A stretch of DNA of 24,423 bases from a virus (lineage: Duplodnaviria; Heunggongvirae; Uroviricota; Caudoviricetes). Position numbers and translations under genes: made by a program. Positions 14,472 to 14,786 of this stretch are shown here, one piece after another. Location of the stretch: IMG/VR virus record IMGVR_UViG_2531839474_000007, positions 1 to 24,423 of that record; one strand, written 5' to 3'. The notes below the pieces were generated by a model. The model was not told where the DNA came from and did not search any database. It saw only the letters and a program-made list of their open reading frames with translations. The stretch's first letter is position 1. Every line of letters starts with the position of its first letter.

Positions 14472-14786
14472 ATGCTACATGATCACGTGGCAGAATGTCT
14501 GGAGAAAAAAGGACTGTACCGGAGAGCAGCTGAACGATGGGCAAAAGTGATGGTACAGCTAAGTGATGACCAGAAAAGAAAAGTGGCGGCACAGAAACGA
14601 GCAGAGTGTTTGCGTAAGGCGCGCCGGACTCCGGTTTCACCGGTGAACCTGACCGAAATAAAACAAGCGGTCAACAGACTACATTCTGAGTTGGGAATGG
14701 GATTTGAAGAGCGGCGGGTATTCCGACGATATAAAGGGACAGGAGAACAGAATACGTCCGGAAACGCGCGGTCAAAAAAATGCTAA
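14472..14786 (+). CDS. PerC-family transcriptional activator (Pch-like, 104 aa)
   Basis: 104 aa MLHDHVAECLEKKGLYRRAAERWAKVM...; the LE-KGLYRRAA-RW block and size match the PerC/Pch family as recalled; preceded by a long AT-rich tract. Confidence 0.55.
   Translation: MLHDHVAECLEKKGLYRRAAERWAKVMVQLSDDQKRKVAAQKRAECLRKARRTPVSPVNLTEIKQAVNRLHSELGMGFEERRVFRRYKGTGEQNTSGNARSKKC

Follow-up and report, generated by a model that had tools for sequence, protein, structure and literature searches.

That the LEE of EHEC has prophage-borne master activators, PchA, PchB and PchC, has been known since 2004. [quoted passage not shown] The group 1 pch genes are required for the expression of ler and espA and for adherence, and respond to an SOS-inducing antibiotic with strong induction (PMC6265319). 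For LEE1 activation, PerC can replace PchABC and vice versa, with gene dosage being of importance (PMC5293775), and LEE expression in EPEC has been reported to be independent of PerC (PMC4764244). Control has also been described at the level of translation. A structure over the Shine-Dalgarno (SD) sequence blocks the translation of pchA, and the sRNA DicF relieves this block under low oxygen (PMC9438474, PMC7873438, PMC11774850, PMC7308464). We take this mechanism from reviews, which present DicF as a co-opted core-genome sRNA and not as linked cargo. An earlier reading of the DNA studied here (the original prediction) proposed that it encodes a Pch-like protein, and the premise of that proposal, that Pch proteins activate the LEE, is documented (PMC4764244, PMC6265319, PMC5293775).

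The DNA analysed here, referred to as the window, is a stretch of 24,423 nucleotides from IMG/VR record IMGVR_UViG_2531839474_000007. It is 100.000% identical over 20,015 bases to JH659573.1 (GCA_000261145.1, E. coli M919). The window corresponds to one whole contig of the M919 draft (JH659573.1, approximately 70770-95192), with N-gaps on both sides, the right-hand one spanning at least 6.6 kb, and its first 93 bases are without a match in the sister prophages. The closest complete relative is a prophage of ECO2947, which is 99.8% identical over 94% of the window and is found at serU/mtfA/yeeJ, like Sakai Sp14. The features discussed below are collected in Table 1.

Table 1. Features of the window, with coordinates counted from its first letter
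Feature	Coordinates	Strand	Evidence or remark
IS3-family, IS629-like element, first copy	1339-2648	-	1310 bp
sok antitoxin RNA	3365-3539	+	RF01794, 114 bits
tRNA genes, three	6835-7084		
First tRNA gene	6835-6910	+	ARAGORN
STnc100 sRNA match	7855-8027	+	Rfam, 100.8 bits
Esterase gene	8165-10015		
IS3-family, IS629-like element, second copy	10025-11334	+	1310 bp
Rz spanin gene, last of lysis cassette, 174 aa	13482-14006	+	PF03245, E 1.2e-48; 174-aa call also obtained on source scaffold
Rz1, embedded in Rz	13759-13944		PF06085 called in relatives
Conserved phage ORF between Rz and pch, 46 aa	14089-14229	+	phrog_2157 full length, E 2.7e-37
AT-rich pch leader/upstream region, SD inside	14230-14471	+	GC scan; base-for-base match to Sakai pchA upstream
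Predicted SD/AUG-masking RNA hairpin	14459-14501	+	folding, 6/7 windows
pchA-type gene, PerC-family group 1 (PchABC) activator, 104 aa	14472-14786	+	PF06069, 149.3 bits; 104/104 to ECs_1091
Predicted hairpin terminator, 11-bp stem AAAAAGCGACU/GGUCGCUUUUU, 5-nt loop, A/T runs	14823-14849		
YlcI/YnfO-family (DUF3950) gene, 74 aa, conserved last gene before cos	14868-15092	-	PF13132, E 1.3e-17; phrog_949
cosN, 12-base cohesive end GGGCGGCGACCT	15300-15311	+	exact lambda match
Nu1, terminase small subunit, first gene of packaging/head operon	15495-16004	+	PF07471, E 1e-18; so annotated in ECO2947
Antisense ORF over portal gene	17920-19077	-	at least 295 aa
S49 prohead protease/scaffold gene, 451 aa	19673-21028	+	

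The gene of interest appears in the list of open reading frames as a complete frame of 104 aa, from ATG to stop, at the place originally predicted. The PerC/Pch family assigned in the original prediction can now be named with precision. The protein matches the Pfam PerC profile (PF06069) over profile positions 1-89 of 90 with an E value of 3.8e-44, and its 149.3 bits are far beyond chance when set against a gathering cut-off of 22.6. In PHROGs it falls into phrog_994 (E 1.4e-45), and also matches families labelled transcriptional activator. The identical protein is called ‘PerC family transcriptional regulator’ in RefSeq (WP_001303878.1) and ‘PchABC family transcriptional regulator’ in UniRef, and the exact 104-aa sequence is present on at least 1000 contigs of public collections. 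When the annotated genome of E. coli O157:H7 Sakai was compared directly, all 104 residues were identical to PchA (ECs_1091, prophage Sp4), with a single difference from PchB (V6L, 99% identity; ECs_2182, Sp11) and two differences from PchC (V6L and V58M, 98% identity; ECs_2737, Sp14). Identity is 40% to PchE, 32% to PchD and, over residues 2-88, 47% to the PerC of EPEC E2348/69, which is encoded next to perB on plasmid pMAR2. A 14-residue C-terminal tail, GTGEQNTSGNARSK, is shared by the window protein, PchB and PchC and is absent from PerC, PchD and PchE, in an alignment that omitted PchA as redundant because it is identical to the window protein.

The likeness to pchA includes the DNA around the coding sequence. 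Over 14007-14900 the window differs from the Sakai pchA locus at two bases only, 14020 and 14801, both of which lie outside the leader and coding sequence (14230-14786); the leaders of pchB and pchC differ from that of the window at dozens of positions. The window therefore holds a pchA-type allele, leader included, and its open reading frame, SD and leader are all intact. At 104 aa and encoded in a lambda-like prophage, the protein has the small size and the mobile-element setting of the PerC family, while near-identity to PchA, PchB and PchC, the C-terminal extension and the location between Rz and cos/Nu1 are features of group 1 Pch. Taking these features together, we put at roughly 92% the probability that this is a pchA allele encoding a LEE-activating group 1 Pch protein, held between Rz and cos as accessory cargo of a stx-negative, lambda-like prophage of M919. 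Searches for structural relatives were also carried out. The PDB, searched by sequence with the Pch protein, returned no relative. A single-sequence AlphaFold model (pLDDT 51) places four helices over residues 3-74, followed by a disordered tail, and is unusable for a fold search; the 16 close relatives, all that the homologue search with the protein returned, make too shallow a set for a better structure model. A match of the protein to the ANR family of NCBIfam (E 0.046, 13.6 bits against a cut-off of 32) was rejected as noise.

The gene was expected between Rz and cos, and this is where it is found, with Rz upstream and an exact lambda cosN downstream. Between Rz and pch lies a 46-aa ORF for which no Pfam or NCBIfam match was found and which is without annotation in the RefSeq relatives. 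On the other side of pch, the segment 14787-14866 folds with -17.3 kcal/mol (z = -2.2), and the predicted hairpin within it can act as a terminator common to the convergent pch and ylcI/ynfO-like genes. A consensus terminator scan missed this hairpin because the stem takes up its A and T runs. The YlcI/YnfO gene itself scores 34.5 bits against NF041551, for which the cut-off is 30. Homology to lambda starts at 14945, within this gene: the 400 bp from 14945 to 15344 are 88% identical to the right end of lambda joined to its left end, with the junction falling exactly at 15300. The last approximately 350 bp of lambda are 88% identical to the region of the N-terminal two-thirds of the YlcI/YnfO gene (14945-15092), and NC_001416 annotates no gene there.

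The order Rz, pch, cos/Nu1 is common to Sakai Sp11, Sakai Sp14, ECO2947 and all ten related loci, which were retrieved through the esterase protein and have PerC in the same position throughout. Other cargo occupies this slot in relatives, namely bor, lambdap78 and lambdap79 in lambda and bor in Sakai Sp8. The pch gene also has a predicted terminator of its own and an AT-rich leader unlike its neighbours in composition. With these features, it is reasonable to regard pch as accessory cargo of the Rz-to-cos slot, or a moron, as it was first described.

The leader deserves a closer description, as it bears on how the gene might be controlled. An SD sequence, GGAGG, is found at 14461-14465, 6 nt 5' of the pch ATG. 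GC content is 24-30% over 14250-14449 versus 46-68% in Rz and the flanking genes and about 50% in Nu1. A sigma-70 consensus scan for a pch promoter returned 2 sites against 4.1 expected, which is below chance, and the sigma-70-like site at 14239-14267 is likewise no better than chance. For Sakai pchA, expression in lysogens is documented (PMC4764244, PMC6265319). In six of seven fold windows, a predicted hairpin pairs the SD (14461-14466) and the AUG with bases 14487-14501 of the coding sequence, where SD bases have pair probabilities of 0.5-0.9 and the UG of the AUG has 0.9-1.0; in the longest fold window (14300-14790), the SD pairs deeper in the coding sequence instead, at approximately 14560-14571. 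This hairpin is a candidate for the published structure that is self-inhibitory and relieved by DicF. According to the abstract of the original DicF-pchA study, the coding sequence reportedly pairs with the 5' UTR, and DicF is said to bind the coding sequence. Since leader and coding sequence are identical to those of Sakai pchA, whatever holds for the Sakai pchA mRNA holds for the window copy. Within the scanned region (14230-14560), the best DicF duplex is found at 14486-14544 and overlaps the hairpin arm in the pch coding sequence. Its energy, -42.6 kcal/mol, does not stand out from the values of window tiles in general (mean -40, sd 5.9), and in a control with shuffled DicF (12/300) the real DicF is only modestly better, so this duplex is no evidence for an interaction.

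DicF itself is encoded on the source prophage (RF00039, 76.7 bits; JH659573.1 segment L018, 18445-18496), approximately 21.7 kb 5' of pch and outside the window. Rfam also places DicF in ECO2947 and in Sakai Sp4 and Sp11 (L001 6803-6854, L002 5733-5784 and L006 41582-41633), and the 3' end is conserved in all four copies. In Sakai Sp14, which does have dicB, Rfam found no DicF even at E<=1. Co-carriage of dicF and pch on one prophage is therefore seen in M919, ECO2947, Sakai Sp4 and Sp11 and not in Sp14, or in 4 of the 5 prophages examined. A tentative idea, which we think rather less likely than not, is that pchA and dicF, along with the type III effectors of the sister prophage, form an oxygen-responsive sensor-activator-effector package that LEE-bearing strains could acquire in a single lysogenisation. 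Alternatively, co-carriage may be a simple consequence of how common both modules are in lambdoid prophages. The linkage of dicF and pchA (and of nle genes in the sister prophage) on one mobile element may be mildly under-described, and it could be coincidence.

The original prediction also held that the prophage contributes to virulence regulation without carrying stx. The stxAB slot between Q/tRNAs and esterase was checked and the open reading frames were inspected, and no stx was found in the window. The interval from the three tRNA genes to the esterase gene contains nothing but a TerB-like remnant, a DUF3927 gene and an STnc100 match. Every ORF of at least 295 aa could be assigned (IS transposases, DUF968, esterase, terminase, portal, protease and capsid), with the exception of one antisense ORF that overlaps the portal gene, which agrees with the predicted absence of stx. 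The STnc100 element lies just 5' of the esterase gene, where Stx phages carry stx, and the same element is found in ECO2947 and in Sakai Sp4, Sp11 and Sp14. The first of the tRNAs is called tRNA-Met (CAT) by ARAGORN versus tRNA-Ile (ileZ) in the annotation of Sakai and ECO2947, i.e., a lysidine-modified CAT anticodon. Elsewhere in the window, the sok RNA adjoins a hok-family toxin ORF, the two making up a type I toxin-antitoxin module.

The prophage is a mosaic. Sakai Sp4 matches the block from holin through lysozyme and Rz to pch (11455-14949) at 99.5% identity, whereas for the late and head regions on either side identity to any Sakai prophage is no more than 94-97%. Such a pattern points to exchange of the lysis-pchA module in one piece. 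In relatives, the S49 prohead protease/scaffold gene encodes 501 aa, versus 451 aa here, a shortening that corresponds to an in-frame loss of approximately 150 bp at a short repeat. Just 4 contigs of the collection have the 451-aa variant (EIF84174.1, M919), which may leave the prophage defective in head assembly.

Two identical insertion sequences lie in inverted orientation on either side of Q, the tRNAs and the esterase gene. Both are IS3-family elements with an ALIL frameshift pseudoknot, and each is a simple insertion relative to ECO2947, and at the second a 3-bp duplication (AAG) can be seen. A hypothetical gene is truncated by one of the two (137 versus 231 aa); the other lies in the late operon between esterase and holin. 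If the two copies recombined, Q, the tRNAs and the esterase gene would be inverted, much like the lysis-pchA inversion in Sakai Sp4. The original prediction took them for IS629 and counted them in favour of an EHEC-type host. Two copies are indeed present, but they are only IS629-like. At approximately 95.5% identity to Sakai IS629, and with the family present in 4253 of 5426 E. coli genomes, they are a weak marker of host type. Copies identical to those of the window occur in O145:H28, O103:H2 and O45:H2 strains.

Among 5426 complete E. coli genomes, 673 have the 631-bp pch locus, with a median of 3 copies each, and it is at least 99% identical in 663 records; in the phage collection only two short fragments match it. 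In an even sample of the carriers, most have O157:H7, O145, O111, O26-type or O55:H7 names and genomes of 5.3-5.8 Mb. A minority of the sampled carriers are single-copy genomes of 4.6-5.0 Mb with unlabelled pathotype, from dog, pig, monkey, sewage and human. A literature search found no paper describing strain M919. The sister prophage in ECO2947 carries nleB2, nleC, nleH1-1 and nleF just past the tail fibres, and another relative (L017) has NleF adjoining pch. Given the nle effectors of the sister prophage, M919 is likely an attaching/effacing, i.e., LEE-positive, host. The term ‘EHEC-type’ used in the original prediction should be softened to probably LEE-positive (attaching/effacing), which is not necessarily Stx-producing.

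A model of how the gene would work can be assembled from the sequence identity, position, anatomy and dicF co-carriage observed here and from the H-NS displacement, LEE1 activation and DicF control described in the literature. PchA would act on AT-rich DNA covered by H-NS, binding it at the LEE1 (ler) promoter and at other horizontally acquired virulence loci. There it would loosen the H-NS/StpA/Hha silencing complex, allowing transcription first of ler and subsequently of the entire LEE type III secretion system. In its mRNA, the ribosome-binding site is predicted to be masked by pairing with the first 30 nt of the coding sequence, in a hairpin that prophage-encoded DicF would open under low oxygen. 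As pch has the same orientation as the late operon, it should also be read through from that operon on prophage induction. From its full identity to the protein used in PMC4764244, we infer that the window copy acts in M919 as PchA does in Sakai, which requires the LEE to be present there.

This last requirement leaves room for a different reading, in which the gene is PchA by sequence but M919 lacks the LEE, so that the protein acts on other H-NS-silenced loci or is hitch-hiking cargo. Backbone sites are among the targets of Pch and PerC, with effects on fim, nitrate respiration and adhesins. Such a reading finds some support in the minority of carriers with small single-copy genomes and unlabelled pathotype (dog, pig, monkey, sewage), in the LEE-independent targets of PerC (PMC5293775) and in the binding of Pch to K-12 backbone sites (PMC4764244). 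We nevertheless judge it unlikely, as the sister prophage in ECO2947 bears four type III effector genes that would be useless without the LEE, relative L017 has NleF adjoining pch, most carriers are named as LEE-positive serotypes, and the IS variant of the window is identical to copies in O145, O103 and O45 EHEC.

It can also be asked whether pch mainly serves the phage, placed at the end of the late lysis transcript and encoding an anti-H-NS protein that would de-silence AT-rich prophage DNA on induction, the LEE being activated only incidentally. Lambda, Sakai Sp8 and many relatives function without pch, with bor or other cargo in the slot, and pch is expressed and active in uninduced lysogens (PMC4764244, PMC6265319); no experiment is known to tie phage yield to Pch. 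These points make a primary role in the phage cycle very improbable, even though pch lies directly 3' of Rz in the orientation of the late operon, with no + strand terminator signal found between the two by the consensus scan, and even though group 1 pch is strongly induced by an SOS-inducing antibiotic (PMC6265319) and prophage regions are heavily H-NS-bound (PMC4764244). A Pch paralogue that does not activate the LEE (of the PchD or PchE type), or a decayed copy, deserves next to no credence. All that speaks for it is that the family has several members, and with 32% identity to PchD and 40% to PchE versus 100% to PchA, and with ORF, SD and leader intact, it is refuted by the 104/104 match to PchA and the family alignment. 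LEE activation by a pchA allele carried as prophage cargo is the reading we retain.

The value of this result lies mainly in annotation. The contig can be described as a lambda-like prophage of E. coli M919 that bears pchA and is stx-negative, and its presence flags M919 as a probable attaching/effacing (aEPEC-like) E. coli. As a discovery it carries little weight, the protein being identical to the reference and in the reference position. Judged by its sequence, the gene is already known: it is PchA, the best-studied member of the family, in its canonical genomic position, with nothing new about the gene. An exact copy of a well-studied protein in its usual place between lysis genes and cos makes for an ordinary finding.

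The closest described systems differ from this locus in ways that help to place it. Ler, like Pch, counteracts H-NS silencing at virulence loci, and the two cooperate (PMC4764244). Ler does so as a homologue of H-NS, in competition for H-NS sites, whereas Pch is unrelated to it in sequence and is without a recognised DNA-binding domain or solved structure. PerC, from the perABC operon on plasmid pMAR2/pEAF of EPEC E2348/69, shares the Pfam family and the N-terminal LExKGxYRRAAxRW motif. However, PerC has 89 aa, is plasmid-borne and forms an operon with perA and perB, whereas the window Pch has 104 aa and is prophage-borne; PerC is also without the 14-residue C-terminal tail of group 1 Pch. In terms of position, the nearest parallel is bor of lambda and Sakai Sp8, which occupies the same slot between Rz/Rz1 and cos and is likewise accessory, changing the phenotype of the host while being dispensable for phage growth. 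It differs in being an outer-membrane lipoprotein gene on the opposite strand, whereas pch encodes a regulator on the late-gene strand. The nearest systems overall are those of Sakai itself. Its host is O157, and M919 is not. Sakai Sp4 has the lysis-pchA block in inverted orientation, flanked by IS629 and ISEc8, and its ylcI/ynfO-like gene is cut short by IS629; in the window, the block is in its ancestral orientation and the gene is intact. As in M919, dicF is found on the same prophage as pch in Sp4 and Sp11, and the order Rz, pch, cos, Nu1 is the same in Sp11 and Sp14.
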